Positions 40,938 to 61,147 are shown, numbered from the stretch's first letter. The stretch is 64,000 nucleotides of DNA from Thermoplasmatota archaeon (GCA_040751795.1 JBFMHR010000001.1:256001-320000); one strand, 5' to 3'. Notes: generated from the letters alone by a model not told the origin. A program made the numbers and translations.

Positions 40938-42628
40938 TGGCCAGGGTGGGCGTGTTCGTCTGCCACTGCGGGCACAACATCGCCTCGACGGTCGACGTCG
41001 AGGCGGTAGTGGAGTTCGCGAAGGGCCTCCCTGGAGTGGCCTACGCGGGGCACAACCTCTACTCCTGCTCCGAGGAGGGCCTCGGCTCGATAAAGAGGAG
41101 CATCGCCGAGAACAAGCTCGACCGGGTCGTGGTCGCGGCGTGCACCCCGAGGACGCACGAGCCCCTCTTCAGGCGCGCGTGCGAGCAGGCGGGCATCAAC
41201 AAGTACCTCTTCGAGTTCGTCAACATACGGGAGCACTGCTCCTGGATACACACAAAGGAGCCCAGGGAGGCGACCGAGAAGGCCAAGAAGCTCGTCGCCA
41301 TGGGCGTCGCCAAGGCGGCCCTCCTCGAGCCGCAGACCGAGGGGGAGTCCGCGGTCCTTCCGGCGGCGGTGGTCATCGGCGGCGGCGTCTCCGGGCTGGC
41401 GGCCGCGGCCTCTCTCGTGGACCAAGGGATCGAGACGCACCTGGTCGAGGCCTCCGACAGGCTGGGCGGGTTGCTCGCCGAGGTGACGACCATCGGCCCC
41501 GAGAGCACCGAAGCGCGCGAAATCATACGCGGCATCGTCAGGAGGCTGGAGGCGTCCCCCAAGGCACACATCCACCTGAGGTCGAGGGTCGCGGAGGCCA
41601 AGGGCTTCGTCGGCAACTTCGAGGTCACAGTCCGCGGCTGCGACAGCGACCTCAAGGTCCCAGCGGGCGCGATCGTGGTCGCGACGGGGACCAAGGAGCT
41701 CGACCCGACGGGCGAGTACGGCTTCGGCCAGAGGCCCGAGGTGGTGACCCAGCTCGAGCTGGAGCGCAGGCTCGCCAGGGGAGAGAGGCCGCGGAGGGTC
41801 GTGTTCATCAACTGCGTCGGGAGCAGGCAGCCCGGGAGGGAGTACTGCTCCAGGGTGTGCTGCAACGTCACCCTGAAGAACGCGCTCATGCTCGCGAAGG
41901 CCTCCCCCGACTCCAGGATACATGTCATACACAGAGACATCATGAGCAGCGGCACCGCGGCGGAGAGGCTGTACAAGGAGGCATCGGAGAGCGGGGTGAA
42001 GTTCCTCAGGTACGGGCTCGAGAGGGTCCCGGAGGTCGTGGCGGGCGGGGACGGGGTGGAGGTCCATGTCTACGACGAGACGCTCGAGGAGACCGTCCAC
42101 CTGGGCGCCGACCTGGTCGTGCTGGCCGTGCCCATGGTCCCTCCGGGGGACTCGGAGGCGACGGCCAAGCTCCTGAAGGTCCCGAGGGACAAGTTCGGCT
42201 TCTTCCTCGAGGCTCATGTCAAGCTCAGGCCCGTCGAGTTCGCCACCGACGGCGTCTTCATCTGCGGCTCGGCGAGGTGGCCGGTCAGCGCAAGGGAGTG
42301 CATCTGGCAGGGAATGGCCGCGGCCGCCAAGGCGTCCATACCCATCAAGGAGGGCAGGGTCGTCATACAGGCCATCACCGCCGAGGTCGACCCCGACAAG
42401 TGCGCCGCGTGCGGCAACTGCGTCCTCGCCTGCCCGTACGAAGCCATCGAGGTCGTCGAGCAGGACGGGCGCAGGGCGGCCAAGGTCAACGAGGCGCAGT
42501 GCAAGGGCTGCGGCACCTGCGTCGCCGCGTGCCACAACGACGCCGTGAGCCAGAAGGGCTTCACGAGCGGTCAGCTCAGCGCGATGGTCGACGCCCTCGT
42601 CAAGGCGGCGCTGGAGGTGCCGAGATGA
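40937..42628 (+). CDS. hdrA: HdrA-like flavoprotein 2 (N-terminal Cys domain, FAD domain, C-terminal 2x 4Fe-4S)
   Basis: VGVFVCHCG, ACTPRTHE, NIREHCSW, GGGVSG, CVGSR..CSRVCC, CAACGNC, CKGCGTC. Confidence 0.88.
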   Translation: MARVGVFVCHCGHNIASTVDVEAVVEFAKGLPGVAYAGHNLYSCSEEGLGSIKRSIAENKLDRVVVAACTPRTHEPLFRRACEQAGINKYLFEFVNIREHCSWIHTKEPREATEKAKKLVAMGVAKAALLEPQTEGESAVLPAAVVIGGGVSGLAAAASLVDQGIETHLVEASDRLGGLLAEVTTIGPESTEAREIIRGIVRRLEASPKAHIHLRSRVAEAKGFVGNFEVTVRGCDSDLKVPAGAIVVATGTKELDPTGEYGFGQRPEVVTQLELERRLARGERPRRVVFINCVGSRQPGREYCSRVCCNVTLKNALMLAKASPDSRIHVIHRDIMSSGTAAERLYKEASESGVKFLRYGLERVPEVVAGGDGVEVHVYDETLEETVHLGADLVVLAVPMVPPGDSEATAKLLKVPRDKFGFFLEAHVKLRPVEFATDGVFICGSARWPVSARECIWQGMAAAAKASIPIKEGRVVIQAITAEVDPDKCAACGNCVLACPYEAIEVVEQDGRRAAKVNEAQCKGCGTCVAACHNDAVSQKGFTSGQLSAMVDALVKAALEVPR

Positions 42629-43044
42629 CCGAGTTCAGCCCGACCATACTCGCATTCTGCTGCAACTGGTGTTCCTATGCGGGAGCTGACCTGGCGGGGG
42701 TCAACAGGCTCCAGATGCCGCCGAACGTCCACGTAATAAGGGTCATGTGCAGCGCGAGCGTCAAGCCCGAGTACGTATTCAAGGCGATATCCCAGGGGAT
42801 CGACGGCGTCCTCATCCTCGGGTGCCACATCGGGGACTGCCACTACCTCACGGGCAACCACAGGACCGCGAAGCGCATCCCAGTCGCCAAGAGGATACTC
42901 AGGGACGCCGGGATCGACGACAGGCGCGTCAGGCTCGACTGGGTCAGCGCGGCCGAGGGGGAGAAGTTCCAGCAGGTCATCACCGAGTTCGTCGGCGAGG
43001 TCAAGGCCTTGGGGCCCAACCCCCTGAGGGAGGTGAGGATGTGA
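42625..43044 (+). CDS. mvhD: MvhD/FlpD [2Fe-2S] subunit
   Basis: FCCNWCSYAGADLAG, RVMCS, GCHIGDCHY..GN, WVSAAEG. Confidence 0.93.
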   Translation: MTEFSPTILAFCCNWCSYAGADLAGVNRLQMPPNVHVIRVMCSASVKPEYVFKAISQGIDGVLILGCHIGDCHYLTGNHRTAKRIPVAKRILRDAGIDDRRVRLDWVSAAEGEKFQQVITEFVGEVKALGPNPLREVRM

Positions 43045-43841
43045 ACGACCTCGCGCGGAGGCTCGTCACCATCGCCTTCGAGGAGCGCGGGGCGGACCGC
43101 CTCCTCCTCATGGCCGAGCGCCACGGGAACGTGGGCCCGGTGATGGTGGAGAAGGGCCAGGACCCGGGCGACGCCAGGGTCGACGTGCCCTACCAGCTCG
43201 TCAACATACTGAGCAACCTGATACCGTTCGTGGGAAGGGCGAAGGTCGCCGTGGTCTGCAGGAGGTGCGACGAGAAGGCCCTGGCGGAGCTCGCGAAGAG
43301 GGGCATCGTCGACGACGCCAGCATCGTCAGGATCGGGCTGGCCTGCACCAAGGAGCAGGTCGAGAGGTGCAGGTGCTCCGACTGCGTCCCGAGCAGGGTG
43401 GACATCGGAGAGCCGGCCGAGCCGTGCCCCGAGGACACCCTCGCGTCCGAGCTCTCGTCGATGGGCACCGAGGAGAGGTCCGCGTTCTGGATGCGCCAGT
43501 TCCGCAAGTGCAACAAGTGCTTCGGCTGCACCCTGAACTGCCCGGTCTGCTTCTGCGACGACTGCGTGCTCGAGGAGAGGACATACACGCCCGAGGAGGG
43601 CATCCCGCCCGGGCCAGCGTTCCACCTCATCAGGTCGTTCCACCTGGCGGACAAGTGCGTCGAGTGCGGGGAGTGCGAGCGCTCGTGCCCGGCGGACATA
43701 CCGCTGCTCACGTTCAGGAAGATGGTGAACAGGGACATGAGGGACCTGTTCGGCTACACGGCCGGCGACAGGGAGAGGAGGAGCCCCCTCCTGACCACGC
43801 TGGACGACCAGCCCCTGGAGGATGACGGCCATGCGTGTTGA
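43041..43841 (+). CDS. Short FdhB-like iron-sulfur subunit
   Basis: VCRRCD, CNKCFGCTLNCPVCFC, FHLIRSFH, CVECGECERSCP. Confidence 0.78.
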   Translation: MNDLARRLVTIAFEERGADRLLLMAERHGNVGPVMVEKGQDPGDARVDVPYQLVNILSNLIPFVGRAKVAVVCRRCDEKALAELAKRGIVDDASIVRIGLACTKEQVERCRCSDCVPSRVDIGEPAEPCPEDTLASELSSMGTEERSAFWMRQFRKCNKCFGCTLNCPVCFCDDCVLEERTYTPEEGIPPGPAFHLIRSFHLADKCVECGECERSCPADIPLLTFRKMVNRDMRDLFGYTAGDRERRSPLLTTLDDQPLEDDGHAC

Positions 43842-45867
43842 GCACGTCCTGACCACATGCCCCTACTGCGGGACCGGCTGCAGGTTCTACCTGCAGGTGG
43901 TGGACGGGAGGCTCGTCGGCGTCGTCCCGTGCAAGACGGACGAGATCAGCCAGGGGCGGCTGTGCATCAAGGGCTACAACGCCCACGCGTTCGTGCAGCA
44001 CCCGGAGAGGCTCACTCACCCCATGGTCAGGGAGGGCGGGCAGCTCAGGAGGGCGACCTGGGACGAGGCGCTGGACAGGGTCGTGTCAGAGGTCAGGAGG
44101 ATCTCCGCCGAGAACGGCCCCGACTCCGTCGTCGTGCTCGCGTCCGCGAAGTGCACCAACGAGGAGAACTACCTCTTCCAGAAGCTGGCCAGGGCGGCGA
44201 TAGGCACCAACAACGTCGACCACTGCGCCAGGCTATGCCACGCGTCCACCGTCGCGGGGCTCCTGATGTCCTTCGGGAGCGGCGCGATGACCAACACGAT
44301 CCCCGAGTTCGAGGGGGCGGACTGCGTCCTGGTGACCGGCTCGAACACCCTCGAGGCGCACCCCATCATAGGCGCGCGCATGCTCCGCGCGTACGACAGG
44401 GGGGCGAAGGTCATCGTCGTGGACCCGAGGGACACGCCCCTGTCGAGGATCGCGTATAGCGCCCTCCACCAGCAGCCAGGCACCGACATCGCCTGGATAA
44501 ACGGCATGATCAGGGTCATCATCGAGGAGGGGCTCCACGACGAAGCGTTCATCGCCGAGCGCACCTCCGGGTTCGAGGAGCTCAGGAGGACCGTCGAGCC
44601 CTACACCCCCGAGAAGGTCCAGGAGATCACCCAGATACCCAAGGAGAGGCTCGTCGACGCCGCGCGCACCTACGCGAACGCCGAGAGGGCGATGATCGCC
44701 TACGCGATGGGGGTGACGCAGCACAGCAACGGCACCAACATAGTGCGCGCGCTAGCGAACCTCGCGATGGTCACGGGCAACATAGGGAGGGAGTCGACAG
44801 GCGTGAACCCGCTCAGGGGCCAGTGCAACGTCCAGGGCGCGTGCGACGCCGGCGGGCTCCCCGACCTGTTCCCCGGCTACCAGAGGGTCGAGGACGCTGA
44901 GGCGAGGAAGAAGTTCGAGGCGGCCTGGGGCAAGGCTCTCCCGCCGACCAAGGGCACCACCCTGACCTGCGCGATCAAGGATGCGCTCACGGGCAAGGTC
45001 AAGGCCATGGTCATATTCGGCGAGAACCCGATGCTCTCCGATCCCGACCTCGCCCACGTCCAGGAGGCGATGGAGGAGCTCGAGTTCCTCGCCGTCGCCG
45101 AGATATTCCCCACGGACACGACGAGGCTCGCCGACGTCGTCCTCCCCGGCGCATGCTACGCGGAGAAGGACGGGACGTTCACCTCGACCGACAGGGCCAT
45201 CCGGCCGGTCCACAAGGCGGTCGACCCGCCGGGCGAGGCCAGGCCCGACTGGGAGATCGCGTGCGAGCTGGGCCGGAGGCTCGGCGGGCAGGGCTTCGAC
45301 TTCGGGTCGCCCTCCGAGGTGATGGACGAGATGGCGAAGCTCGCGCCGCAGTACGGCGGCGTCAGCCACGAGAGGGCGGACAGGCAGGTCCTGAGGTGGC
45401 CTTGCCCGAACAAGGAGCACGCGGGCACGCCGGTGCTGCACGTGGGCGGGTTCAAGATGGGCAGGGGGGTCCTGGTCCCGGTCGACCACGCGCCCCCCGC
45501 GGAGGAGACCTCCGATGAGTACCCGCTGATACTGACGACCGGGAGGAACCTATTCCACTTCCACACCGGCACGATGACCAGGAGGTCTCCGAAGCTGGAG
45601 CGGGAGGCCCCTTCGCCGTACGTCGAGGTCTGCCCCGCCGACGCTCAGAAGCTCGGCGTGTCGCACGGCGACCGCGTTCGCGTGGCCTCCAGGAGGGGCG
45701 AGATAACCCTCGAGGCGAGGGTGACCGGCTGGATCATGCCGGGGGTCGTGTTCATCCCGTTCCACTACGCCGAGGCGGCCGCGAACAGGCTGACCAACCC
45801 CGCCCTGGACCCCGTGGCGAAGATACCGGAGTTCAAGGTCTGCGCGGTCAGGATGGAAAAGGCGTGA
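43831..45867 (+). CDS. fdhA: Formate dehydrogenase alpha subunit (Mo/W-bisPGD, Cys ligand, cytoplasmic)
   Basis: CPYCGTGC, LCIKG, DHCARLCHASTV, LRGQCNVQG, PEFK; no Tat signal. Confidence 0.93.
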   Translation: MRVEHVLTTCPYCGTGCRFYLQVVDGRLVGVVPCKTDEISQGRLCIKGYNAHAFVQHPERLTHPMVREGGQLRRATWDEALDRVVSEVRRISAENGPDSVVVLASAKCTNEENYLFQKLARAAIGTNNVDHCARLCHASTVAGLLMSFGSGAMTNTIPEFEGADCVLVTGSNTLEAHPIIGARMLRAYDRGAKVIVVDPRDTPLSRIAYSALHQQPGTDIAWINGMIRVIIEEGLHDEAFIAERTSGFEELRRTVEPYTPEKVQEITQIPKERLVDAARTYANAERAMIAYAMGVTQHSNGTNIVRALANLAMVTGNIGRESTGVNPLRGQCNVQGACDAGGLPDLFPGYQRVEDAEARKKFEAAWGKALPPTKGTTLTCAIKDALTGKVKAMVIFGENPMLSDPDLAHVQEAMEELEFLAVAEIFPTDTTRLADVVLPGACYAEKDGTFTSTDRAIRPVHKAVDPPGEARPDWEIACELGRRLGGQGFDFGSPSEVMDEMAKLAPQYGGVSHERADRQVLRWPCPNKEHAGTPVLHVGGFKMGRGVLVPVDHAPPAEETSDEYPLILTTGRNLFHFHTGTMTRRSPKLEREAPSPYVEVCPADAQKLGVSHGDRVRVASRRGEITLEARVTGWIMPGVVFIPFHYAEAAANRLTNPALDPVAKIPEFKVCAVRMEKA

Positions 45868-50022: not shown

Positions 50023-50913
50023 TCAGCCCTTCCAGCCGTGGTGGATCTTCGCGGCCTTGACCGTGTTCTTCATCAGCATCGTTATGGTCATCGGGCCGAC
50101 GCCGCCGGGGACCGGGGTTATCGCCTTGGCCTTCTCCTTGACGGACTCGAAGTCGACGTCTCCCACGAGGCGGCAGCCGCCCTTCGCGCTCGGGTCGTTG
50201 ATCCTGTTGACGCCCACGTCTATGACGACGACTCCCTCCCTCACCATGTCCGCCTTCACGAAGTTGGGCACGCCCATCGCCGCGATGAGGATGTCCGCCT
50301 GCCTCGAGAACTTGGGCAGGTCCTGCGTGCGCGAGTGGCATATGGTCACGGTCGCGTCGGCCCCCGCCGCCTTCTGGAGCAGTATGTTGGTGATGGGCTT
50401 GCCGACGATGTTGCTCCTGCCCAGGACGACGACGTGCTTGCCCTTGGGGTCGTTGCCGCTCCTCACGAGGAGCTCCTGTATCCCCGCCGGGGTGCATGGC
50501 AGATAGGACTCCGCCCCGACGACCATCCGTCCCACGTTCATCGGGTGGAAGCCGTCGACGTCCTTGCCGGGGTCGATCCTGAGCAGCACCTTCTCCTCGC
50601 TGATGTGCTTCGGGAGCGGGAGCTGGACGAGTATGCCGTCGAACCTCTTGTCCGCGTTGTACTTGTCTATCATCGAGAGGAGCTCCGCCTCCTTGGTGTC
50701 GGCCGGGAGGCGTATCGTCTCGGAGTGCAGCCCGAGCTCCTGGCACGCCTCGCCCTTCTTGCGGACGTACACCTGCGACGCGGGGTCCTCCCCGACTATG
50801 ATCACTACCAGGCCCGGCGTCACGCCGCCGGCCTTCATCCTGGAGACCTCCTCCTTGAGCTCGGCCCGGATGCTCTTCGCCACCTCGTTCCCGCTGATGA
50901 CCTGCGCAGACAT
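50023..50913 (-). CDS. folD: Methylene-THF dehydrogenase/methenyl-THF cyclohydrolase
   Basis: YVRKK, ILVQLPLP, KDVDG, PCTP, GRSNIVGKP, PGGVGPMT. Confidence 0.96.
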   Translation of the reverse strand: MSAQVISGNEVAKSIRAELKEEVSRMKAGGVTPGLVVIIVGEDPASQVYVRKKGEACQELGLHSETIRLPADTKEAELLSMIDKYNADKRFDGILVQLPLPKHISEEKVLLRIDPGKDVDGFHPMNVGRMVVGAESYLPCTPAGIQELLVRSGNDPKGKHVVVLGRSNIVGKPITNILLQKAAGADATVTICHSRTQDLPKFSRQADILIAAMGVPNFVKADMVREGVVVIDVGVNRINDPSAKGGCRLVGDVDFESVKEKAKAITPVPGGVGPMTITMLMKNTVKAAKIHHGWKG

Positions 50914-51061
50914 TCCCAACGCCTCCTGAGACGGGATGCACGCGATTTACTTAAGGTTTCGCGGGCCGGGGACGCGGTCCGGCCTGGCGCGTCGGCGGCG
51001 CATCGGATTTCCGAAAGGCTTTATTACGCAGTCATTATACCCCCTTAAAAGGGGGCTCAAA

Positions 51062-52780
51062 ATGGCGATGAAGCCAGACATAGAGATTGCTCAGGAGGCG
51101 AAGGTACAGCATATCGAGAAGATCGCGGAGAAGGTAGGTCTCTCCCGCGACGACCTTGAATTCTACGGGAAGTACAAGGCCAAGGTCCCCCTCGAGGTGC
51201 TCAAGAAGTTCGACAAGAACAAGGATGGCAAGCTGATACTCGTCACTGCCATCACCGCCACGAAGGCGGGGGAGGGCAAAACCGTCACGTCCATCGGCCT
51301 GTGCCAGGGCATGGGCAAGCTGGGGAAGAAGGTCATGCTGTCCCTCAGGGAGCCGTCCCTGGGCCCGACCTTCGGGATCAAGGGCGGCGCGACCGGCGGA
51401 GGATACTCCCAGGTATACCCCATGTGGGACATCGACCTGCACTTCACCGGCGACATACACGCGGTCGGCACGGCGCACAACCTGCTGAGCGCGCTCGTCG
51501 AGAACCATGTCGCGAAGAAGAACCCGCTCAACATCGACCCGACCAAGATCGTCCTGGGCAAGGTCATGGACATGAACGCCAGGGAGCTGCGGCAGATCGT
51601 CGTCGGCCTCGGCGGAAGGTCCGAGGGCGGGGTCCCGCACGAGAGCAGGTTCGACATCACCGTCGCCAGCGAGATCATGGCCATCCTCGCGCTGGCCAAG
51701 GACCTCAAGGACCTCAGGGAGAGGCTCGGCAAGGTCGTCGTCGCGTACACCTACGACAACAAGCCGGTCTACGCGAGCCAGCTCAACGGCGTCGGCGCGA
51801 TGTGCCTCCTGCTCAAGGACGCCATCATGCCCAACCTCGTCCAGACGCTCGAGGGGCAGCCCGCGCTCATCCACGGCGCACCCTTCGCGAACATAGCCCA
51901 CGGGAACAGCTCGATCATCGCGACGAAGTACGCGCTGAAGATGGCCGACTACGTCATCACCGAGGGCGGCTTCGCGGCCGACCTGGGCGCCGAGAAGTTC
52001 TACGACATCGTCTGCAGGACCGGCGGCTTCAAGCCCGACTGCACCGTGCTCGTCGCGTCCATCAGGGCGCTCAAGATGCACGGGGGCATGACCGAGGAGG
52101 AGCTGAACGCGATCCTGAAGAAGCACGTCCCGACCAAGGAGGAGGAGAAGAAGCACCTCCAGTACCTGGAGAAGGGCTTCGCCAACCTCGACAAGCACAT
52201 CGAGAACATGAAGAAGTTCGGCGTGCCGACCGTGGTCGCCATCAACAGGTTCCCGACCGACACGGACGAGGAGCTCAAGCTGACGGCCGAGCACTGCAAG
52301 AAGGTCGGCGCCAGGTTCGCCAAGTCCGAGGTCTTCGCCAAGGGCGGCGAGGGCGGCGTCGAGCTGGGCAAGGCCGTGCTGGACTGCCTCGAGAAGGAGA
52401 AGGCCAACTTCAAGGTGCTCTACGAGGTCGACCTGCCCATCAAGAAGAAGATCGAGATCCTCGCCAAGGAGATATACGGCGCGGACGGCGTCGTCTACAC
52501 CGGCACCGCACCCGCGGACATCGCTGCAATCGAGAAGGCCGGGAACGACAAGCAGCCGCTCTGCATGGCCAAGACCCAGCACTCGCTGACGGACGACCCC
52601 GCGAAGAAGGGGGCCCCGAAGGGCTGGGTCCTGACGGTGAGGGAGGTCAGGCTGAGCAACGGGGCCGGCTTCATCGTGCCCCTGACGGGCAAGATGATGA
52701 CCATCCCGGGGCTGCCGACCGTGCCCGCGGCCGAGAGGATCAACATCGACGACAAGGGCTACATCACCGGCCTGAACTGA
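51062..52780 (+). CDS. fhs: Formate-tetrahydrofolate ligase
   Basis: YGKYKAK, GEGKT, GIKGGATGGGYSQ, HFTGDIHA, PFANIAHG, CMAKTQ. Confidence 0.96.
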   Translation: MAMKPDIEIAQEAKVQHIEKIAEKVGLSRDDLEFYGKYKAKVPLEVLKKFDKNKDGKLILVTAITATKAGEGKTVTSIGLCQGMGKLGKKVMLSLREPSLGPTFGIKGGATGGGYSQVYPMWDIDLHFTGDIHAVGTAHNLLSALVENHVAKKNPLNIDPTKIVLGKVMDMNARELRQIVVGLGGRSEGGVPHESRFDITVASEIMAILALAKDLKDLRERLGKVVVAYTYDNKPVYASQLNGVGAMCLLLKDAIMPNLVQTLEGQPALIHGAPFANIAHGNSSIIATKYALKMADYVITEGGFAADLGAEKFYDIVCRTGGFKPDCTVLVASIRALKMHGGMTEEELNAILKKHVPTKEEEKKHLQYLEKGFANLDKHIENMKKFGVPTVVAINRFPTDTDEELKLTAEHCKKVGARFAKSEVFAKGGEGGVELGKAVLDCLEKEKANFKVLYEVDLPIKKKIEILAKEIYGADGVVYTGTAPADIAAIEKAGNDKQPLCMAKTQHSLTDDPAKKGAPKGWVLTVREVRLSNGAGFIVPLTGKMMTIPGLPTVPAAERINIDDKGYITGLN

Positions 52781-52793
52781 TCAGTCCAGGCGA

Positions 52794-52830
52794 TGGGGGC
52801 GGCGGTGCCGCCCCCGCCCGAAACCCTTTG
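52794..52830 (+). terminator. Hairpin + AAACCCTTT downstream of fhs
   Basis: GGGGCGGC-GGT-GCCGCCCC stem followed by GAAACCCTTT. Confidence 0.45.
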
Positions 52831-52906
52831 ACCGTATCACCCAGTGGCGGCCTCTTTCCGTCCGCTGGACCATGCCCTTCAGGCACAACCGGAAGGAGGG
52901 GGAAGC

Positions 52907-54145
52907 GTGACCAACGAAGTCCTCGTGATTGGAGGGGGGCCCGCCGGCCTCACGGCGGCGAAGGCCCTCGTTGACAGGGGAGCGAACGTCGTGCTCGTCG
53001 AAGGCTCCGAGTCGCTCGGCGGGATGGCCAGGGAGCTGACGTGCAAGGGCCTCGCCGAGTGCAGGGACTGCGGCGCGTGCTTCGCCATCGACAGGGCGGC
53101 CGAGGTGCTCAGGGAGCCGTCCGTCGAGGTGCTGCTCCTCTCCGAGGTCACGTCCGTGAAGGGCGGGGCCGGCTCCTACGAGGCCAGGATCAAGGTCTCC
53201 CCCAGGTACGTGACCGACGACTGCATCGGATGCGGCAGGTGCGTGGAGGCGTGCCCGGCCGAGGGCAAGGCTATATTCCCGCCCAAGGGCACCGGCCAGC
53301 CCAGGCTCCACTGGATCGACAGGCAGAGGTGCCTCCACTTCAGGAAGGGCGGGTGCGAGAAGTGCGCCGAGGTATGCCCGACGAAGGCCATCGACTTCGA
53401 CGACAGGGCGACGAACGTCACCAGGAAGGCGGGGTCCGTCGTCTACGCCACGGGGATGGAGCCCGTGGACGCCTGCGAGGTGAGGAGGCTCGGCTGCGGC
53501 ACCCTCCAGGACGTGGTGTCGAGCGTCGACGCCGAGAGGATGCTCAACGAGAGGGGGAGGCTGCACCGCCCCTCGGACGGCGCCGCCCCGAAGAAGGTGG
53601 CGGTGATGCAGTGCGTCGGCTCCAGGTCCGTGAAGAACGGCGTCGACTACTGCTCCAAGTTCTGCTGCAAGTACGCAACGAAGATCTCCCAGCTCATCAT
53701 GGACGCAGACCCGGAGGTCGCCCTGGACTTCTACTTCATGGACCTGAGGACGCTCTACGAGCCCCAGGACGACTTCAAGAGGTGGGCCAAGGACCGGAAG
53801 ACGGTCCGGCTCATCAGGAGCATGCCCGCGGTGGTGCAGCCAGGGAAGGACGGGAAGCTCGTGGTCAAGGCCGCGACCGAGACGGACACCGAGGTCCAGG
53901 AGAACGAGTACGACATGGTCCTCCTGTCCGTGGGGATGAGGCCCAAGGGGGCCTCGGACGAGCTCGCCAAGGCGCTGGGAATATCCACCGACGAGAGGGG
54001 GTTCGCCGAGGCCGGCCCCGGGCTGGCGGAGAAGGGTGTCCACGTCATCGGCGCCGTCTCGGCGCCCATGGACATAGAGGAGGCCGCGGTCAGGGCTCTG
54101 GCCGAGGCTTCCAGGGTGAGGCTCACGAAGGAGGTGGCGCGATGA
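52907..54145 (+). CDS. hdrA: HdrA-like flavoprotein 3 (FAD domain + inserted ferredoxin)
   Basis: IGGGPAG, CIGCGRCVEACP, CEKCAEVCP, MQCVGSR, CSKFCCKYATK. Confidence 0.85.
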   Translation: MTNEVLVIGGGPAGLTAAKALVDRGANVVLVEGSESLGGMARELTCKGLAECRDCGACFAIDRAAEVLREPSVEVLLLSEVTSVKGGAGSYEARIKVSPRYVTDDCIGCGRCVEACPAEGKAIFPPKGTGQPRLHWIDRQRCLHFRKGGCEKCAEVCPTKAIDFDDRATNVTRKAGSVVYATGMEPVDACEVRRLGCGTLQDVVSSVDAERMLNERGRLHRPSDGAAPKKVAVMQCVGSRSVKNGVDYCSKFCCKYATKISQLIMDADPEVALDFYFMDLRTLYEPQDDFKRWAKDRKTVRLIRSMPAVVQPGKDGKLVVKAATETDTEVQENEYDMVLLSVGMRPKGASDELAKALGISTDERGFAEAGPGLAEKGVHVIGAVSAPMDIEEAAVRALAEASRVRLTKEVAR

Positions 54146-55719
54146 AGGCCAGGATACAGGTCGTCGCCTGCAGGTGCTGCACCGAGATGCCGCCCCTGCT
54201 GGACATGTCGAGGCTCATGGGCGTCGCCTCGGAGAGGGAGCTGGTCGTGTCGTCCCTCCTGGTCGACCGCGTCTGCGACGGGAAGAGCATCAAGCAGGTG
54301 GTCGCGGAGGCGAAGGAGCGCGAGGTGGACAGGGCCATGATCCTCGCGTGCCAGAGGAAGGACGTGAACCCGGCGCTCCTGTCCGCGTACGTGAAGACGG
54401 GCGTCAACGAGTTCCTGGTCGAGTACGTGGACCTGAGGGACGAGGTCGTCCTGCCGCACCTGGGCGACGCGAAGAGGGCCCAGGCCAAGGCAGAGGCCAA
54501 GGTCCGCGCCGGGCTCGACAGGCTCACGATGCTCGCTCCCCTGGAGAAGGCCCGCGAGGAGATGAGGACGGCGAACGTCGTCGTCCTCGGCGGGGGCGCG
54601 TCGGGGCGCAGGGCGGCCGAGGTCGCGGCCGCGCAGGGCGCGCACACGGTCATAATAGAGAAGGGGGTCAAGGACTACAAGGCCCCGGGCGTCATCATGC
54701 CACACTCCACTCTGGCGGGAGCTAAGGGGTACGGGGGCAACTTCGTCCTCACCGTCAAGGCCGGCGAGAAGCTCGAGGAGCTGGAGTGCGCGGCGGTCGT
54801 CGTCGCCACCGGCGGAGGGTGGGCCGAGCTGAAGGGCCCCCTCGCCAAGGCGTGCAAGTCCGCGGTGCCGCTCTACAGGCTCCACGAGCAGATGGCCGCG
54901 GGCGGGGTGCCCAAGGGCCCGGTCGTCATAGTCGACACGCCGGACCCGGCGGGGAAGGGCCTCGCCGTGATGGACTTCGCGTGGGACGAGAGCCTCGAGC
55001 TCGCCTCCGAGGTCAAGAGGAGGGCGCCCCAGGAGGAGGTCTATGTCATATTCCAGGAGATGCGCGCGTTCGGCCTCTCAGAGCTCGCGTACAAGGACGC
55101 GGCCGAGCTGGGCGTCAGGTTCGTGAGGTACGACAGGTCGGGCGGGCCCAAGATAGATCCCAAGGAGCCGAGCAAGCTCACGGTCAAGGACCTCTCACAG
55201 GGAGAGGTCCTGTCCATACCGTTCGGCTCGCTCGCCTTCGCCGCGATCCCCGCCAACAGGGACAACGAGGGCATCGCGGACGCGCTGAGGATACCGATGT
55301 CCCCCGAGGGAGGCGTGAGGAGGGGGAGCATCCAGAGGTGGCCGGTGAGCACCCCCAGGCCGGGGGTGTTCGTCTGCGGCTCGGCGATGTTCCCGAAGTC
55401 GAGGGAGATGGCCGAGGCGGAGGGCGAGGCGGCTGGCCTCATGGCCGGCAGGTTCGCCATGCAGGGCGCGATAGAGTACGGGGGCGCCGTCGCCGAGGTC
55501 GCGCAGGAGAAGTGCTCCGCGTGCCTCACATGCGTCAGGACCTGCCCGTACGAGGCGCCCTACATCGGTGCGGCGGGCAAGATCGAGATCCGCGCCCAGG
55601 CGTGCCAGGGCTGCGGGATGTGCGTGGGCATCTGCCCCAGCAAGGCGCTGGAGCTCCGCGGGTCCACGGACGACCAGATCGCGCAGGAGACGCGGACCAT
55701 GCTCGGGGGTGACTTCTGA
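54142..55719 (+). CDS. Degenerate HdrA-like protein 4 with C-terminal 2x 4Fe-4S
   Basis: VVACRCC N-terminal domain, GGGASG, PGVFVCG, CSACLTCVRTCP, CQGCGMCVGICP; central CVGSR/CC motifs absent. Confidence 0.8.
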   Translation: MKARIQVVACRCCTEMPPLLDMSRLMGVASERELVVSSLLVDRVCDGKSIKQVVAEAKEREVDRAMILACQRKDVNPALLSAYVKTGVNEFLVEYVDLRDEVVLPHLGDAKRAQAKAEAKVRAGLDRLTMLAPLEKAREEMRTANVVVLGGGASGRRAAEVAAAQGAHTVIIEKGVKDYKAPGVIMPHSTLAGAKGYGGNFVLTVKAGEKLEELECAAVVVATGGGWAELKGPLAKACKSAVPLYRLHEQMAAGGVPKGPVVIVDTPDPAGKGLAVMDFAWDESLELASEVKRRAPQEEVYVIFQEMRAFGLSELAYKDAAELGVRFVRYDRSGGPKIDPKEPSKLTVKDLSQGEVLSIPFGSLAFAAIPANRDNEGIADALRIPMSPEGGVRRGSIQRWPVSTPRPGVFVCGSAMFPKSREMAEAEGEAAGLMAGRFAMQGAIEYGGAVAEVAQEKCSACLTCVRTCPYEAPYIGAAGKIEIRAQACQGCGMCVGICPSKALELRGSTDDQIAQETRTMLGGDF

Positions 55720-56138
55720 TGTCCGAGAGGAGGCCGAAGGTCGTCGGGTTCTGCTGCGAGAGGCACGGGCTGGACGCGGCCGTGCTCGCCGCGAGGTCCG
55801 GCAAGGGCTGCGACGCCGGCGTGAGGATCATCAAGGTGCCGTGCAGCGGCAGGGTCGACGGGCTGCACATACTGCAGGCTCTCGAGGACGGCGCGGACGC
55901 AGTGTTCGTCCTGGGCTGCCTCGAGAAGAACTGCCACTACGACACCGGCTCGATCGAGGGGAGGAAGCGCGTCGAGTACGTGAAGTCCACACTCGAGGGG
56001 CTGGGCATCGAAAAGGAGAGGGTCGAGATGTTCAACGCCTCCTCCACGATGGCCTGGCGGTTCCCGGAGATCGTGTCCAGGATGGTCGAGGTCGCCAAGC
56101 GCCTCGGCCCGATAGGCAAGGGGGGCGGTGACCGATGA
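55719..56138 (+). CDS. mvhD: MvhD/FlpD [2Fe-2S] subunit (divergent)
   Basis: GFCCERH, KVPCSGRV, GCLEKNCHY..GS. Confidence 0.85.
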   Translation: MSERRPKVVGFCCERHGLDAAVLAARSGKGCDAGVRIIKVPCSGRVDGLHILQALEDGADAVFVLGCLEKNCHYDTGSIEGRKRVEYVKSTLEGLGIEKERVEMFNASSTMAWRFPEIVSRMVEVAKRLGPIGKGGGDR

Positions 56139-56839
56139 TAGTCGCGAAGAGGAAGCCGATGGCGGAGATAGCCGAGATGGTCGCCCCGTACAAGAGGGTC
56201 AAGGTCATAGGCTGCAGGAGCTGCGTCGCGATATGCCTCGCCGGGGGCGAGAAGGAGGTCAAGGCGCTCGCGTCCGCCCTCAGGCTCAAGGCCAGGAAGG
56301 AGGGCAGGAGGCAGGAGTTCGAGGGCCTCGTCGTCGAGAGGCAGTGCGAGAAGGAGTGGGTCAAGGAGGTCGAGGACAAGGTGATGGACTCCGACCTCGT
56401 CCTCTCGATGGCCTGCTCGCTCGGCGCCCAGACCATCGGCGACATGTACCCCAAGAAGCTCGTCTTCCCCGCCCTGAACACCGGCATATTCGGGGTCCCC
56501 GAGGAGCAGGGCGTCTGGTCGGAGAAGTGCGTCGGCTGCGGCAACTGCGTCATACACACCACCGGCGGCATCTGCCCGATAGCCAGGTGCGCCAAGAGCA
56601 TGCTCAACGGGCCGTGCGGCGGCTCCTCGAACGGCAAGTGCGAGGTCAACCTCGAGGTCGACTGCGCGTGGTACGCGATACACGAGAGGCTGAAGCTGCA
56701 GAACAGGCTGGAGCTGATCGAGCAGGTCTCGCCCCCGAAGGACTGGTCCACCAGCCACTCGGGCGGGAGGAGGGTCTACGTCCGCGAGGACGCTAGGCTG
56801 ACGCAGCACCAGAAGAAGGGCAGGGAGGCGGTGAGATGA
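56135..56839 (+). CDS. metV: Methylene-THF reductase small subunit MetV
   Basis: GCRSCVAICLAGG, RQCE, CVGCGNC, GICPIARCAKSMLNGPCGG, CAW. Confidence 0.9.
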   Translation: MIVAKRKPMAEIAEMVAPYKRVKVIGCRSCVAICLAGGEKEVKALASALRLKARKEGRRQEFEGLVVERQCEKEWVKEVEDKVMDSDLVLSMACSLGAQTIGDMYPKKLVFPALNTGIFGVPEEQGVWSEKCVGCGNCVIHTTGGICPIARCAKSMLNGPCGGSSNGKCEVNLEVDCAWYAIHERLKLQNRLELIEQVSPPKDWSTSHSGGRRVYVREDARLTQHQKKGREAVR

Positions 56840-57756
56840 AGGCGGGCAGCAACCTCGAGAAGGTATTCGAGTCGGGCAGGTTCGCCGTCACCGCGGAGAT
56901 AGGACCGCCCCAGTCAGCCAACCCCGACCCGCTCGTCCACCACGCCAAGATGCTCAGGGGAGCGGCCGATGCGTTCAACCTCACAGACAACCAGACCGCG
57001 GTCGTCAGGCTCTCCAGCATCGCGAGCGCGGTGCTCATAATGAGGGAGGGCATCGAGCCCGTCATACAGATGACCTGCAGGGACAGGAACAGGATCGCGC
57101 TGCAGAGCGACCTCCTCGGCGCGAGCGCGCTCGGGATCAGGAACGTGCTCTGCCTCACCGGCGACCACCAGACCTTCGGGAACGAGAAGGGGGCGAAGAG
57201 CGTCTTCGACTTCGACTCGATATCCGAGCTCCAGGTCTTCGACAGGCTGAGGCGCGAGGGGAAGCAGCCCGGGGGCCAGGAGATCAAGGACCCGCCGAAG
57301 GTGTACCTCGGCTGCGCCGAGAACCCCTTCGCCACCCCCTACGAGTGGAGGGCGGCCAGGCTCGCCAAGAAGGTGGCGGCCGGCGCCGACTTCGTCCAGA
57401 CCCAGGCCATATTCGACATGGACATGTTCGAGAAGTGGATGGACGAGGTGAGGGCGAGGGGCCTCGACAAGAAGGTGCACATCCTCGCAGGGGTCATACC
57501 GATGAAGACCGCGGGCGCCGCCAGGTACATGAAAAACAAGGTGCCCGGGATGATAGTCCCCAACCACATCATAGACAGGATGAAGAACGCGAAGGACGCC
57601 AAGGAGGAGGGGATCAGGCTCTGCATCGAGCAGATCGAGACCCTCAAGAACATCAAGGGCGTCCACGGCGTGCACATCATGGCGGTGATGTGGGAGGAGA
57701 TGGTCCCGAGGATAGTCCAGGAGGCCGGGCTGATGCCCAGGCCCTCCTTCGAGTGA
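56836..57756 (+). CDS. metF: Methylene-THF reductase
   Basis: VTAEIGPP, TDN, CRDRNRIALQSD, LTGD, QTQ, GVHIM. Confidence 0.94.
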   Translation: MKAGSNLEKVFESGRFAVTAEIGPPQSANPDPLVHHAKMLRGAADAFNLTDNQTAVVRLSSIASAVLIMREGIEPVIQMTCRDRNRIALQSDLLGASALGIRNVLCLTGDHQTFGNEKGAKSVFDFDSISELQVFDRLRREGKQPGGQEIKDPPKVYLGCAENPFATPYEWRAARLAKKVAAGADFVQTQAIFDMDMFEKWMDEVRARGLDKKVHILAGVIPMKTAGAARYMKNKVPGMIVPNHIIDRMKNAKDAKEEGIRLCIEQIETLKNIKGVHGVHIMAVMWEEMVPRIVQEAGLMPRPSFE

Positions 57757-57768
57757 GAGGACGGAACG

Positions 57769-59433
57769 ATGGCCTCGGCGGAGTTCGGAGCGCTCAACGA
57801 CGCGATGGTCAGGGAGCTCTTCAGGCTGAACCCTGACGCCGGCACGAGGTTCGGGCTCCACGACCCCTACGACGGGATGCTGCCCCACGGCGGGTTCCGG
57901 CGCCTCGAGAAGACGGCCGACCTCTTCACCGAATGGCTGAGGAGGGCGGAGAAGGCCGCCTCGTCCGAGGAGCTCGACTTCGATGAGAGGACCTCGATGG
58001 AGGTCCTCAGGATGACCGAGGGACTGGTCAGGTTCGCGAGGGACGACTACCCCCTCTGGCAGATCTACCCCGAGGCGACGGAGGTCCCCGGGGCCGCGCT
58101 GCTCCTGATGCTCGCGAGGGACTACGCGACCCCCGGCGAGAAGGCGGCGTGGGTCTCGTCCAGGATCGGGGAGGTCCCGCGCTACCTGGAGGAGTACAGG
58201 ACCAGGTTCAGGCCCGGCAGGCCCGCGAAGGAGTGGGCGTCCATGGCGGCCGAGGCCGCCAAGGGCTTCCCGCAGTTCCTCGAGTACCTGGGGAAGCACT
58301 ACGCAGGCGACGCCGCTGGGCGCGTCGGGGCCGAGCTCTCGAAGAACGTGGCCCGGGCCGTCGAGGCCATGGACGAGCACCTGGAGTGGGTCGTGAGCCT
58401 CGAGGAGCACGCCTCTCCAGGGTTCGCGATGGGACCCGAAAGGCTCGGGAAGCTCCTAAGGCTGAGGGGGTTCGGGTCCACGCCCGAGCAGGTCCTGGCG
58501 TTCGGGGAGTCCTCGCTCAGGCAGCTCAAGGCCGAGAGGGACCGCGTCGGCTCCGAGATGGCGCGGGGAGGGCCGCTGGAGGACGCCGTGGAGGTGATAC
58601 GGTCCGACTCCCCGCCCGACTTCGACGCGGCGTTCGCGGAGACCAGGGCGGAGGTCGAGAGGGCCAAGAGGTTCGTCATCGACAACGACATCGCGACCCT
58701 CGACTACGACGCGCGGCTCCACGTGCTCGAGACACCCAGCTTCATGGCCAGCACGGTCACCTCGGCCGCGCTCGAGATGGCGGCGCCGTTCGAGGAGAGG
58801 CAGCAGGGCGTGCTGATGCTCACGAGGGTCTCCGGGGAGGCGCTAAGGGACCAGTACTCCAGGGCGTCGATAGGCAACCTGGCGGTGCACGAGGCGTTCC
58901 CGGGCCACTTCCACCAGGGGGTCATGTCCAACCGGATGCCGTGGATGCACCAGCTCTCTCTGATGCCCATCGAGCCGGACACCATGGTCCCCTCCTGGGA
59001 GACACAGGAGGGGTGGGGGATGTACTGCGAGAAGATGATGCTGGACCGCGGGTTCAGGACCTCCCCCTCTGACACCCACGCGATGCTCGACTACGCCATA
59101 TGGAGGGCATGCAGGATCGTCTACGACGTCAAGCTCGCGAGGGGCGACGCGACCGTGGACGAGATGGTCCGGATGTTCGAGAGGGAGACAGGCTCGCCGC
59201 ACGACGTCGTGAGGGCGGAGGTCCTCGGCTTCTCAAGGAACCCCGGCTACGGGCTATCGTACCTCACGGGCCGGCAGATGGTCTTCGACCTGAAGAGGGA
59301 CCTGGTCGGGGAGCTCGGGGGCTCCTTCAGCGAGAAGCGGTTCCACGACCTCGTGGCCCTCAACGGCAACCTGCCCTTCCACCTTGCGGGCAGGGCGGTC
59401 AGGCGCGGGTTCGGGCTGGCCGCGGGCGCCTGA
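57769..59433 (+). CDS. DUF885 family protein (putative metallopeptidase)
   Basis: GLHDPYD, HEAFPGHFHQ, EGWGMYCE, WRACRI, PGYGLSYLTG, FHD. Confidence 0.82.
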   Translation: MASAEFGALNDAMVRELFRLNPDAGTRFGLHDPYDGMLPHGGFRRLEKTADLFTEWLRRAEKAASSEELDFDERTSMEVLRMTEGLVRFARDDYPLWQIYPEATEVPGAALLLMLARDYATPGEKAAWVSSRIGEVPRYLEEYRTRFRPGRPAKEWASMAAEAAKGFPQFLEYLGKHYAGDAAGRVGAELSKNVARAVEAMDEHLEWVVSLEEHASPGFAMGPERLGKLLRLRGFGSTPEQVLAFGESSLRQLKAERDRVGSEMARGGPLEDAVEVIRSDSPPDFDAAFAETRAEVERAKRFVIDNDIATLDYDARLHVLETPSFMASTVTSAALEMAAPFEERQQGVLMLTRVSGEALRDQYSRASIGNLAVHEAFPGHFHQGVMSNRMPWMHQLSLMPIEPDTMVPSWETQEGWGMYCEKMMLDRGFRTSPSDTHAMLDYAIWRACRIVYDVKLARGDATVDEMVRMFERETGSPHDVVRAEVLGFSRNPGYGLSYLTGRQMVFDLKRDLVGELGGSFSEKRFHDLVALNGNLPFHLAGRAVRRGFGLAAGA

Positions 59434-59488
59434 AGGCGTCGTCGCAAACATCATGCACCCCTACCGCATGTCCCGTCACGGTGTTCGC

Positions 59489-61147
59489 ATGGCAGTAGAC
59501 GCCTTCGACGAGCTCAACGAGCGCATGTTCAAGAGGCTGCTGGACCTGAAGCCGGAGGTCGGCACGGTCATCGGCCTGCACGACCCGTACGACATGCTCA
59601 TGCCCCATGGCGGACTGGAGGACCTTACCGGCGCGTACGACCTTCTCAGGGAGTGGCGCTCCGCCGCAGCCGAAGTCGCATCCAGGCAGGAGCTGTCGCT
59701 GGACCAGTCGCTGTCGATGAAGATACTCGACGCCTCGATCGAGATGCTCAGGTTCGCGATAGAGGACCACCAGATGTGGAGGATGTACCCGAACGCCGTC
59801 GACGGCATCGGGGGCCTCGCGTTCATCATGTTCTCGAGGGAGTACGCGCCCGTCGAGTCCAGGGCGAGGGGCGTCGCGGCGAGGCTGAAGCTGGTGCCCA
59901 AGTACCTCAAGGAGTTCGAGTCCAGGTTCGAAGACGGGAGGCCCGTCAAGCTCTGGACCGAGGAGGCGATCGACTCGTGCGACCAGGTCCCCGCGTTCCT
60001 GACGTTCATCGAGTCCGCGTGGAAGGGCCAGGTCTCCCCCGGGACGGCGAGTGACCTGGGCGAAGGGGTCCGTGCGGCGAACGAAGCCATCAAGGCCCAC
60101 AAGGAGTGGCTGCAGGGGCTGCTCAGGACCGCCGCCCCCGACTTCGCAATGGGGCGCGAGAGGTTCGAGAGGCTCCTCAAGGTGAGGGGCCTCGGCATGA
60201 CGGGCGACGAGATACTCCGCCTTGGCGAGAAGTACCTCCACGACCTCAAGGCCGAGCGGGCCGCGGTCGCGGACAGGATCTCAGGGGGCAAGGGGCTGGA
60301 GGAGGCCAAGAGGATCGTCGAGGCCGACTGCCCCAGGACCTTCGAGGAGGGGCTGGAGGCCACGAGGCGGGAGATGGAGTCGGCGAAGAGGTTCATCATC
60401 GAGAACGAAATCGCCACCGTCGACGAGAGCGGCGTCCTGAAGGTCGTCGAGACGCCCGACTTCCTCAGGCCCCTGTTCCCCTATGCGGCCCTCATGATGT
60501 CGTCCAAGTTCGACCCGGTGCAGGAGGGGGCCTACATCGTCACGAGGCCAGAGGACCCGAAGGACCTGGCCAAGCACCTCAACCACGCATCCATCATCAA
60601 CACCGCCGTGCACGAGGCGTTCCCGGGGCACTTCCACCAGGGCGTGCGCTCCAACAAGAGGCACTGGATGCTGCAGCTGCACCACATGGTGAGCGGGAAC
60701 GACACGATATCCACCTCCGCCGAGACGGTCGAGGGCTGGGCGCACTACTGCGAGAAGATGATGTTCGAGCGCGGGTACAAGGCAACCGACGCGGCCGCGC
60801 TCGAGACGCTGAACGGGGCGATATGGCGCGCGTACAGGATCATCGCCGACATCAAGCTCGCGCGGGGCGAGGCGACGGTCGAGGAGATGGTCCGGTTCGG
60901 GATGGAGGAGGCCGGGATGCCGAGGGCGGCCGCCGAGGCCGAGGTGAAGAGGTACACCCACACCCCCGGGCAGGCGCTGTCCTACCTCGTAGGCAGGCAC
61001 ATGCTCATAGAGTTCAGGAAGGACATGGAGCGCGAGCTGGGGGCGGCGTTCGACGAGAAGAGGTTCCACGACCTCGTCGCGGGCTACGGCTACCTGCCCA
61101 TGCCACTGATGATGGAAGGCGTCAGGGCGGGGATGAAGCAGGGCTGA
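59489..61147 (+). CDS. DUF885 family protein, paralog 2
   Basis: GLHDPYD, HEAFPGHFHQ, EGWAHYCE, PGQALSYLVG, FHD. Confidence 0.82.
   Translation: MAVDAFDELNERMFKRLLDLKPEVGTVIGLHDPYDMLMPHGGLEDLTGAYDLLREWRSAAAEVASRQELSLDQSLSMKILDASIEMLRFAIEDHQMWRMYPNAVDGIGGLAFIMFSREYAPVESRARGVAARLKLVPKYLKEFESRFEDGRPVKLWTEEAIDSCDQVPAFLTFIESAWKGQVSPGTASDLGEGVRAANEAIKAHKEWLQGLLRTAAPDFAMGRERFERLLKVRGLGMTGDEILRLGEKYLHDLKAERAAVADRISGGKGLEEAKRIVEADCPRTFEEGLEATRREMESAKRFIIENEIATVDESGVLKVVETPDFLRPLFPYAALMMSSKFDPVQEGAYIVTRPEDPKDLAKHLNHASIINTAVHEAFPGHFHQGVRSNKRHWMLQLHHMVSGNDTISTSAETVEGWAHYCEKMMFERGYKATDAAALETLNGAIWRAYRIIADIKLARGEATVEEMVRFGMEEAGMPRAAAEAEVKRYTHTPGQALSYLVGRHMLIEFRKDMERELGAAFDEKRFHDLVAGYGYLPMPLMMEGVRAGMKQG

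Follow-up and report, generated by a model that had tools for sequence, protein, structure and literature searches.

Within a 64,000-nucleotide stretch of the genome of an uncultured Thermoplasmatota archaeon (GCA_040751795.1, JBFMHR010000001.1:256001-320000; hereafter the window, with positions counted from its first letter), five plus-strand genes downstream of fhs encode a methylene-tetrahydrofolate (methylene-THF) reductase and two unlike relatives of the heterodisulfide reductase subunit HdrA. The genome comprises 2.05 Mb in 53 contigs and is 92.8% complete, and its closest relatives in public collections are metagenome-assembled genomes of Thermoplasmata archaea. The first gene, hdrA1 (52907-54145, 412 amino acids), has a GTG start with GGAGGGGG upstream, and is followed by hdrA2' (54142-55719, 525 amino acids), mvhD (55719-56138, 139 amino acids, a divergent MvhD/FlpD), metV (56135-56839, 234 amino acids, the Fe-S subunit of MetVF-type reductases; PF12225, E = 8e-36), and metF (56836-57756, 306 amino acids, the methylene-THF reductase; PF02219, E = 9e-42). 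The four junctions overlap as ATGA, TGATG, ATGA, and ATGA, and there is a GGAGG-like stretch ahead of each overlapping start; judged from the DNA, hdrA1-hdrA2'-mvhD-metV-metF is a set of five translationally coupled genes. An initial annotation, made from the sequence alone, had described five genes with overlapping stop and start codons downstream of fhs, encoding an HdrA pair together with a methylene-THF reductase (MetVF). The reading frame coordinates and junctions agree with the first part of that description, and the Pfam families and gene order agree with the second.

The metF gene is the only copy found, being the one PF02219 match across the 92.8%-complete genome, and MetV has no match by sequence to solved structures at E <= 0.01. 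The position of mvhD directly upstream of adjacent metV and metF is that of the Hdr-type (also called type IV) methylene-THF reductases of the acetogenic bacteria Moorella thermoacetica and Sporomusa ovata. In S. ovata, HdrA (942 amino acids) is encoded in an hdrCBA-mvhD-metVF cluster; it begins with an extra thioredoxin reductase (TrxR)-like module that has the sole Glu/Lys flavin signature of the protein (E160, K216), and continues with an N-terminal-type domain, a second TrxR-like module without an inserted ferredoxin, and a C-terminal ferredoxin (PMC9430772). Pull-downs in that species have shown that MvhD, HdrA, MetV, and MetF interact (PMC9430772). The Moorella HdrA (1487 amino acids) has an added GltD-like NAD(P)H module (PMC9430772), contains two flavin adenine dinucleotides (FAD) (PMC5861303), and belongs to the fused, complementary kind of HdrA described below (PMC9012536).

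Set against the solved Methanothermococcus thermolithotrophicus HdrA (5odc_A, 654 amino acids), HdrA1 aligns over its residues 1-406 with 142-563 (E = 8e-73). It contains the TrxR/FAD core with the inserted 2x[4Fe-4S] ferredoxin, without the N-terminal domain and without the C-terminal ferredoxin, and matches positions 138-556 of 777 in the NCBIfam HdrA2 model (284 bits, cut-off 1100). In the alignment to 5odc_A, the cluster motif CVGSRS...CSKFCC, with K259 after it (53612-53683), has C236, C249, C253, and C254 at the places of C386, C399, C403, and C404, and E210 (codon 53534-53536) and K259 correspond to E356 and K409. None of the six residues varies among 16 aligned sequences. The four-cysteine [4Fe-4S] motif of the TrxR domain (CxGSRD...CxxxCC) is thus found in HdrA1, but not in HdrA2'. 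According to Kremp et al. 2022 (PMC9430772), E356 and K409 serve to separate HdrA flavins that bifurcate from those that do not, and this signature is present in HdrA1. A further loop of four cysteines, C46-x5-C52-x2-C55-x2-C58 (53042-53080), has C55 and C58 at the positions of C194 and C197 in the solved HdrA; C46, C52, C55, and C58 are invariant in the 16 sequences. Cys197 is the ligand that one HdrA lends to the cluster of its partner's N-terminal domain (Chadwick et al. 2022, PMC9012536). The inserted ferredoxin of HdrA1 (53222-53377, residues 106-161; Fer4_7, E = 7e-13) has cysteines at 106, 109, 112, 116, 142, 150, 153, and 157, all eight of which are invariant.

[quoted passage not shown] Its alignment with 5odc_A (E = 5e-33) is in two parts: residues 3-174 correspond to 4-174, including the N-terminal domain, and residues 289-505 correspond to 412-634, which is the last part of the core and the C-terminal ferredoxin. 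Compared with HdrA, the middle part (175-288) is shorter by about 110 residues, and the NCBIfam score is 176 bits (cut-off 1100). The N-terminal domain (54142-54546) has invariant C10, C13, C45, and C70, and the C-terminal ferredoxin (55495-55656, residues 451-504, matched by Fer4 families) has C458, C461, C464, C468, C488, C491, C494, and C498, which are invariant in distant relatives as well. Between residues 70 and 412 there is no conserved cysteine in 19 sequences (C216 is present in 58% and C238 in 53%). The dinucleotide-binding motif VVVLGGGASG...IIEK (54577-54663) has G150, G152, G155, and E173-K174 invariant in 19 sequences of the window's family. A single-chain structure model of HdrA2' (mean predicted confidence, pLDDT, 79.8) has 5odc_A as its best Foldseek match (E = 2e-37), with thioredoxin reductases lower. 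The BLASTP match between HdrA1 and HdrA2' is limited to the ferredoxin motifs (E = 9e-5); the flavin domains are too diverged for a duplication to be dated.

Several claims of the initial annotation concern this pair. It had assigned the cluster ligands and the Glu and Lys of the bifurcating flavin to the first HdrA only, which agrees with the alignment, with the invariance of E210 and K259, and with the rule given in PMC9430772; the comparison to a characterised HdrA that it had proposed shows the HdrA1 ligands matching 5odc_A and HdrA2' without the cluster cysteines. The loss of the central cysteine motifs from the second HdrA and the retention of its C-terminal ferredoxin are also borne out. 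Its description of the GxGxxG of HdrA2' as a remnant is contradicted by the invariant GxGxxG and E173-K174, and "degenerate" does not suit a protein that carries an N-terminal domain and a C-terminal ferredoxin absent from HdrA1. With this motif intact in the window's family, HdrA2' may have kept its flavin. That family alone has the motif complete with the acidic residue, and the degenerate state of the motif in two of the families with a similar gene arrangement (f2 and f26, below) favours a mainly structural or wiring role for HdrA2'. The proposal of one active flavin and one scaffold or wire subunit is accordingly retained for the signature, present only in HdrA1, and revised for HdrA2', which is not merely degenerate.

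A decaying duplicate might be expected to resemble HdrA2' in some respects, since HdrA2' has no cluster motif or inserted ferredoxin, is the fastest-evolving of the five genes, and has a TrxR domain in which BLASTP finds no similarity to that of HdrA1. The conservation of the gene makes such a functionless duplicate scarcely credible. Within a sample of 301 genomes of the class, HdrA2' has orthologs (E <= 1e-100) in 38 of the 39 further genomes that belong to the window's family and in none of the 262 genomes from other families. Median ratios of nonsynonymous to synonymous substitution (dN/dS) against the window copy, rough values because synonymous differences are near saturation, are 0.20 for hdrA2' (18 pairs), 0.18 for hdrA1 (16 pairs), 0.13 for mvhD, 0.10 for metV, 0.08 for metF, and 0.12 for fhs. 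Nearly all relatives match HdrA2' over its full length (residues 1-525) with its twelve Fe-S cysteines invariant, and the 120 top database relatives, among the matches listed, are close Thermoplasmata orthologs of 522-527 amino acids; the best 120 for MvhD are likewise close Thermoplasmata orthologs only. All 21 related loci also share the neighbourhood, within the limits of each contig, in the order acs and folD on the opposite strand, then fhs, hdrA1, hdrA2', mvhD, metV, metF, DUF885, and purH. A pseudogene, which the initial annotation had named as the alternative to be checked in orthologs, is ruled out by the dN/dS of 0.20, the 38 of 39 genomes, the synteny, and the invariant cysteines. 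Beyond close orthologs, a search of 1.84 billion cluster representatives found one other full-length protein more than 50% identical to HdrA2', the next being at most about 37% identical. Among the best 150 representatives, 29 are of 450-620 amino acids and 88 are longer than 900 amino acids (fused forms). By a simple pattern count, 17 of the 29 short ones have neither cluster motif, so cluster-less, stand-alone HdrA2'-like proteins are common in metagenomes.

Neither HdrA1 nor HdrA2' has all four HdrA domains in one chain, while the pair together does. Compared to 5odc_A, the sum of the two proteins is each cofactor domain of HdrA once, plus a second, cluster-less flavoprotein body, and the NCBIfam HdrA2 model gives the same complementary picture. 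HdrA2' holds the two cluster domains that are missing from HdrA1, so each protein would need the other. Tandem or fused HdrA proteins with a complementary N-terminal domain and Cys197 have been proposed to be heterodimers (PMC9012536), and the complementarity described there is present in HdrA1 and HdrA2'. The initial annotation was right to link the pair to MetVF, but missed this division of domains. Predictions of the HdrA1/HdrA2' complex gave interface scores (ipSAE) of 0.88, 0.88, and 0.89, and the best of three controls gave 0.48; of the cases used for comparison, 58 of 80 solved complexes and 2 of 110 mismatched pairs attain the mark for this score. The runs share at least 91% of contacts, and the partner pLDDT is at least 86. 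The predicted interface includes residues 52, 54-56, and 58-59 of HdrA1, which belong to the cysteine loop, and residues 11-12, 15-18, 42-43, 45-46, 73-74, and 76-78 of HdrA2', so that the modelled contact of the loop with the N-terminal domain is at the expected site of a shared cluster. The heterodimer is a prediction of these models.

If adjacency reflected only shared regulation, then HdrA1 and HdrA2' could pair with other paralogs or with HdrBC-like proteins. The genome offers many HdrA-like genes, eight MvhD domains, and about ten proteins with CCG domains, and an unrelated control reached 0.48 in the complex prediction. That explanation is nevertheless very improbable, because the domains are exactly complementary and the genes overlap by ATGA, the pair is kept in 38 of 39 family genomes and occurs as a fused polypeptide in nine loci elsewhere, and the predicted interface falls at the shared-cluster site.

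The MvhD of the cluster is clearly a member of its family (PF02662, E = 2e-37, 128 bits, cut-off 22.3), but differs from the others encoded in the genome. Six of the seven other FlpD domains score 172-191 bits, and the seventh (70 bits) is partial and lies inside a fused HdrA-like frame. In alignment with solved MvhD chains, C12-C13-E-R-H16 (55752-55766) replaces C-C-N-W-C, as the initial annotation had noted; the conserved N-terminal CxxC is therefore absent, with His in place of the second Cys of the pair. Among the other MvhD domains of the genome, the six of full length have CNWC or CTWC. C12, C13, H16, C42, C67, and C72 are invariant in 21 sequences. C12 or H16 may substitute for the missing cysteine, although this is a guess: family f2 has VC..H, and families f26, f30, and f33 have CC without the His.

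The same genes are found in other arrangements across the class. MetV (PF12225) is present in 68 of the 301 genomes, and 20 MetV loci were compared, all from families other than that of the window. An hdrA1-like gene, an hdrA2-like gene, and mvhD are directly upstream of metV-metF in 16 of these; L055, L056, and L058 have none of the three there, and L051 has only a polyferredoxin-like gene and mvhD. The 16 Hdr-linked loci comprise nine with a fused HdrA of 1004-1471 amino acids (families f4, f15, f21, and f29) and seven with split genes (f2, f26, f30, and f33). The split form, including that of the window, is thus found in five Thermoplasmata families in this sample. HdrA1 is colinear with residues 15-365 of a fused HdrA of 949 amino acids (P0127, E = 1e-26), and HdrA2' with residues 409-932 of the same protein (31% identity, E = 1e-64).

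Several traits differ between the two forms, although the families are related to each other and the counts are not independent events. MvhD has the canonical CC(N/H)(F/Y)C in all nine fused loci, hdrC and hdrB are directly upstream in at least four of the nine (confirmed by Pfam for one), and the loop of the fused HdrA is the canonical DKTFPTxDCxMC. In all seven split loci (L040, L041, L046, L050, L052, L054, and L059), the third Cys of MvhD is lost, and the HdrA2' cluster motif is absent. The MvhD motif is CCERH in the window's family, VCENH in f2, CCEKM in f30, CCSYG in f33, and CCSRS in f26; an extra first Cys or a His is present whenever the canonical second Cys of the CxxC is missing. 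The loop C-K-G-x3-C-x2-C-x2-C occurs in HdrA1 of the five aligned split loci and of the window, the four-cysteine motif being shared with split-type HdrA1 of three other families. No CCG gene is present in the fetched DNA of the seven split loci, and a tblastn search of the 21 related loci with ten CCG regions of the window genome gave no hit at E <= 1e-5. Two side observations concern the fused loci. In family f4, three loci (L044, L048, and L053) have a GltD/NfnB-like NAD(P)H module, either inserted in a Moorella-like HdrA of about 1470 amino acids (Fer4_20 and Pyr_redox_2) or, alternatively, as a separate upstream gene ahead of mvhD-metV-metF. In families f15 and f21, hdrC-like (about 186 amino acids) and hdrB-like (about 276 amino acids, two CCG domains) genes (L045, 1601-2994; L047, 1639-3032) are directly upstream of a fused HdrA of 1085 amino acids, the second half of which contains an inserted ferredoxin of its own; these archaeal loci thus have the hdrCBA-mvhD-metVF order known from bacteria.

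The cluster appears to be a split, HdrBC-less variant of Hdr-type methylene-THF reductase with a single cofactor set and an asymmetric HdrA. As in the accounts of the Moorella and Sporomusa enzymes, the order is mvhD-metV-metF and there are two TrxR-like HdrA modules, here as two genes; the first has no N-terminal domain and carries, as in S. ovata, the sole Glu/Lys signature, and in the second the N-terminal domain and the C-terminal ferredoxin are present and the inserted ferredoxin is absent. In contrast to those enzymes, the modules are separate genes of an archaeal host, there is no hdrB, hdrC, or GltD-like domain, the [4Fe-4S] motif is gone from the second module, and MvhD has no third Cys. 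The first module here also has an inserted ferredoxin, reported as missing from the methanogen-like C-terminal part of both bacterial proteins. The methanogen HdrA in MvhADG-HdrABC (5odc) shares the fold, the four domain types, the FAD signature, the cluster ligands, and the MvhD adaptor. It is described as a homodimer of complete subunits with two cofactor sets, reducing heterodisulfide through HdrBC, whereas the window has one cofactor set over two unlike subunits and its partner couple is methylene-/methyl-THF. Complementary tandem or fused HdrA paralogs are also described from anaerobic methanotrophic (ANME) archaea, where HdrA5/6, HdrA12/13, HdrA3, and HdrA4 are read as symmetry-breaking heterodimers (PMC9012536). 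These belong to methane or alkane oxidisers, mostly work with HdrBC or other partners, and are likened here by their description only; that description, in the accessible text of PMC9012536, makes no mention of a four-cysteine loop, a cluster-less second module, or a linked change in MvhD. The principle of an asymmetric HdrA is already in print, while its particular reduced form is different here.

Among published clusters, "Ca. Syntrophoarchaeum" has metFV-hdrA-mvhD (PMC9012536), and clusters from Chloroflexi (PMC5736913) and Actinobacteria (PMC7325909) include hdrB/hdrC. No split, HdrBC-less HdrA-MvhD-MetVF cluster is described in the literature searched (main texts). A paper on Bathyarchaeia (PMC7886697) has nothing on MetF or MetV, and the accessible portions of published accounts of these sediment Thermoplasmata clades do not mention MetF or an HdrA-MetVF cluster.

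The reading preferred here, which is probable, is that the five genes encode one soluble MetVF-MvhD-HdrA1/HdrA2' redox complex with an obligate asymmetric heterodimer that couples methylene-/methyl-THF to ferredoxin. The methylene-THF reductase MetVF would be wired through MvhD to the heterodimer. HdrA1 would supply the FAD with the Glu/Lys signature, the [4Fe-4S] cluster of the TrxR domain, the inserted ferredoxin, whose counterpart in methanogen Hdr is the arm that binds ferredoxin, and the Cys197 loop. HdrA2' would supply the N-terminal cluster domain, completed across the interface by that loop, and the C-terminal ferredoxin, whose counterpart in methanogen Hdr receives MvhD, while its cluster-less TrxR-like body would preserve the dimer. 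On the model of the methanogen enzyme (PMC9012536, PMC6019823, PMC5861303), bifurcation would take place at the FAD of HdrA1, and the methylene-/methyl-THF couple (about -200 mV) would be linked to ferredoxin there by this reaction or by confurcation. Electrons could pass from the cluster shared by the HdrA2' N-terminal domain and the HdrA1 loop to the inserted ferredoxin and then to free ferredoxin. The HdrA1 core cluster, and the HdrA2' C-terminal ferredoxin reached through MvhD, would be the two other terminals, with MetV on one of them. Sequence comparison shows the domain anatomy and its conservation, the purifying selection on both HdrA genes, the synteny, and the way the traits vary together; complex formation, bifurcation, the MetV terminal, and a third redox partner are all parts that we infer.

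Which terminal MetVF would occupy is nearly balanced, with a slight preference for MvhD over the HdrA1 cluster (the place of HdrC). MvhD is favoured because mvhD directly precedes metV in all 16 Hdr-linked loci, because the same adjacency is reported in the Moorella, Sporomusa, Chloroflexi, and actinobacterial clusters, and because MvhD pulled down MetF in S. ovata (PMC9430772). The remaining terminal would need a partner encoded elsewhere in the genome. That the split forms lack both the HdrA2' cluster and HdrBC suggests that, in the fused enzymes, HdrBC may hang on the cluster of the second module.

An extension of the preferred reading, possible but rather doubtful, is that the split form is a minimal, self-contained, three-terminal bifurcase, in which methylene-THF replaces heterodisulfide, MetV replaces HdrC/MvhG, and the HdrA1 loop and MvhD are changed. 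The enlarged four-cysteine loop of HdrA1 would then build a new or re-ligated interface cluster, and the Cys/His-altered [2Fe-2S] site of MvhD would be retuned for the -200 mV methylene-THF couple. If this were true, then the parallel losses of the HdrA2' cluster, HdrBC, and the third Cys of MvhD would map, as a natural experiment, the terminal that feeds HdrBC in all Hdr-type enzymes.

A simpler scheme would have no energy coupling at all: electrons would pass one way, from reduced ferredoxin at the inserted domain to MetVF, with the HdrA1 flavin as a one- to two-electron converter and no third partner. MetVF-type enzymes use reduced ferredoxin in vitro, MetVF alone being able to reduce methylene-THF with it, and non-bifurcating HdrA homologs exist (PMC9430772); the cluster also has neither hdrBC nor a third substrate-binding module. 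Such a wire is considered unlikely, since it would have no use for the invariant E210/K259 signature or for three conserved terminals (inserted ferredoxin, HdrA1 cluster, and C-terminal ferredoxin with MvhD), and five genes would be needless where MetVF alone suffices.

Several points weigh against the coupled complex preferred here. Modules for NAD(P)H, F420, H2, or formate are absent from the cluster, as is HdrBC, which leaves bifurcation without an identified third substrate, and the in vitro activity of MetVF alone (PMC9430772) makes bifurcation chemically unnecessary. Both HdrA proteins are below the NCBIfam cut-offs for true HdrA (at least 1100 bits). Residues 175-288 of HdrA2' have no sequence alignment to solved HdrA, and a manual reading of this part gives E249 and no Lys at the position of K409. 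The altered ligand set of MvhD could mean a changed or lost [2Fe-2S] cluster. Solved HdrA homodimers exist, so the heterodimer score may reflect likeness alone rather than binding, and the 0.48 of one unrelated control bears on the same score. The genome has at least seven other HdrA-like genes and about ten CCG proteins, any of which are possibly the real partners, and the sequencing runs listed for 51000-58000 are of DNA or unclassified, with no RNA run among them, and contain at most 0.37 of its words.

How methylene-THF reduction is coupled to energy conservation is unsettled for Hdr-type reductases, neither the second acceptor nor the coreductant having been established in Moorella and Sporomusa (PMC5861303, PMC9430772). 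The archaeal form has one cofactor set over two small proteins, without HdrBC or an NAD(P)H module, and so has fewer electron paths; the split pair would be simpler for expression, electron cryomicroscopy, and assays than the fused bacterial HdrA of 100-160 kDa. The linked changes between fused and split forms give testable predictions on which HdrA terminal serves which partner. The cluster also bears on the THF-type Wood-Ljungdahl pathway in widespread sediment Thermoplasmata. The genome has a single methylene-THF reductase, CdhC, and pterin-binding methyltransferases, and it follows from these that the complex would serve that pathway; the window contributes fhs, folD, and a gene resembling FdhA. 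In vivo the complex could run in either direction, towards reductive acetogenesis or methyl oxidation.

Candidate partners for a third terminal are the Mvh-type [NiFe] hydrogenase that contig C23 encodes next to further Hdr genes, the FdhA-like gene of the window together with the HdrA pair that accompanies it (39630-45867), and the approximately ten CCG proteins of the genome. On C23, a large Hdr/Mvh supercluster at about 271000-292000 includes the large subunit of a [NiFe] hydrogenase (271017-272294), MvhD domains of the canonical type (four), two fused double HdrA (about 1011 amino acids each), further HdrA, and CCG proteins; this gene map is from crude calling by GC content at third codon positions that mis-framed several genes, and is used for orientation rather than as proof. 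Of the CCG genes, the one closest to the operon (32715-33881, plus strand) encodes an HdrD/GlpC-like protein of 388 amino acids with Fer4_8 and two CCG domains, and adjoins genes for a MobB-FeS protein and a B12-binding radical SAM enzyme (30113-32602). On C34, the genome's best pterin-binding methyltransferase-like gene (81568-83080; PF00809, E = 2e-85) is beside an HdrB-like gene with a CCG domain.

The second unlike HdrA pair in the window comprises an HdrA-like flavoprotein of 435 amino acids without ferredoxin domains (39630-40937, plus strand) and an HdrA-like protein of 705 amino acids with a fused C-terminal MvhD (40927-43044, plus strand), the start of which is overlapped by the first gene. 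A small open reading frame follows, and then an FdhA-like molybdopterin oxidoreductase (43822-45867, plus strand). The region 39630-45867 looks like an HdrA-linked formate dehydrogenase or CO2 reductase. QmoA and QmoB of sulfate reducers are also unlike HdrA-related flavoproteins encoded side by side; QmoB has a fused MvhD domain, and the pair works with the membrane subunit QmoC and adenylylsulfate reductase (aprAB). We take the architecture of the pair in 39630-45867 to be QmoA/QmoB-like, and the Qmo arrangement presumably fits this pair (39630-43044) better than HdrA1/HdrA2'.

Upstream of the cluster, fhs (51062-52780, plus strand; PF01268, E = 1e-253) encodes formate-tetrahydrofolate ligase, the step preceding the cluster, and lies upstream of hdrA1 in each of the 21 related loci where the fetched DNA extends far enough. 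The 126-nucleotide spacer between fhs and hdrA1 has a GC-rich hairpin (52789-52818, plus strand; RNAfold, -24.8 kcal/mol for 52781-52830), so that fhs may not share a transcript with the cluster. Divergent from fhs on the minus strand is folD (50023-50919; PF02882 and PF00763), which is kept in the related loci. Two tandem DUF885 genes (57769-59433 and about 59480-61147, plus strand) are directly after metF, and one or two copies of DUF885 recur at the same place in related loci.

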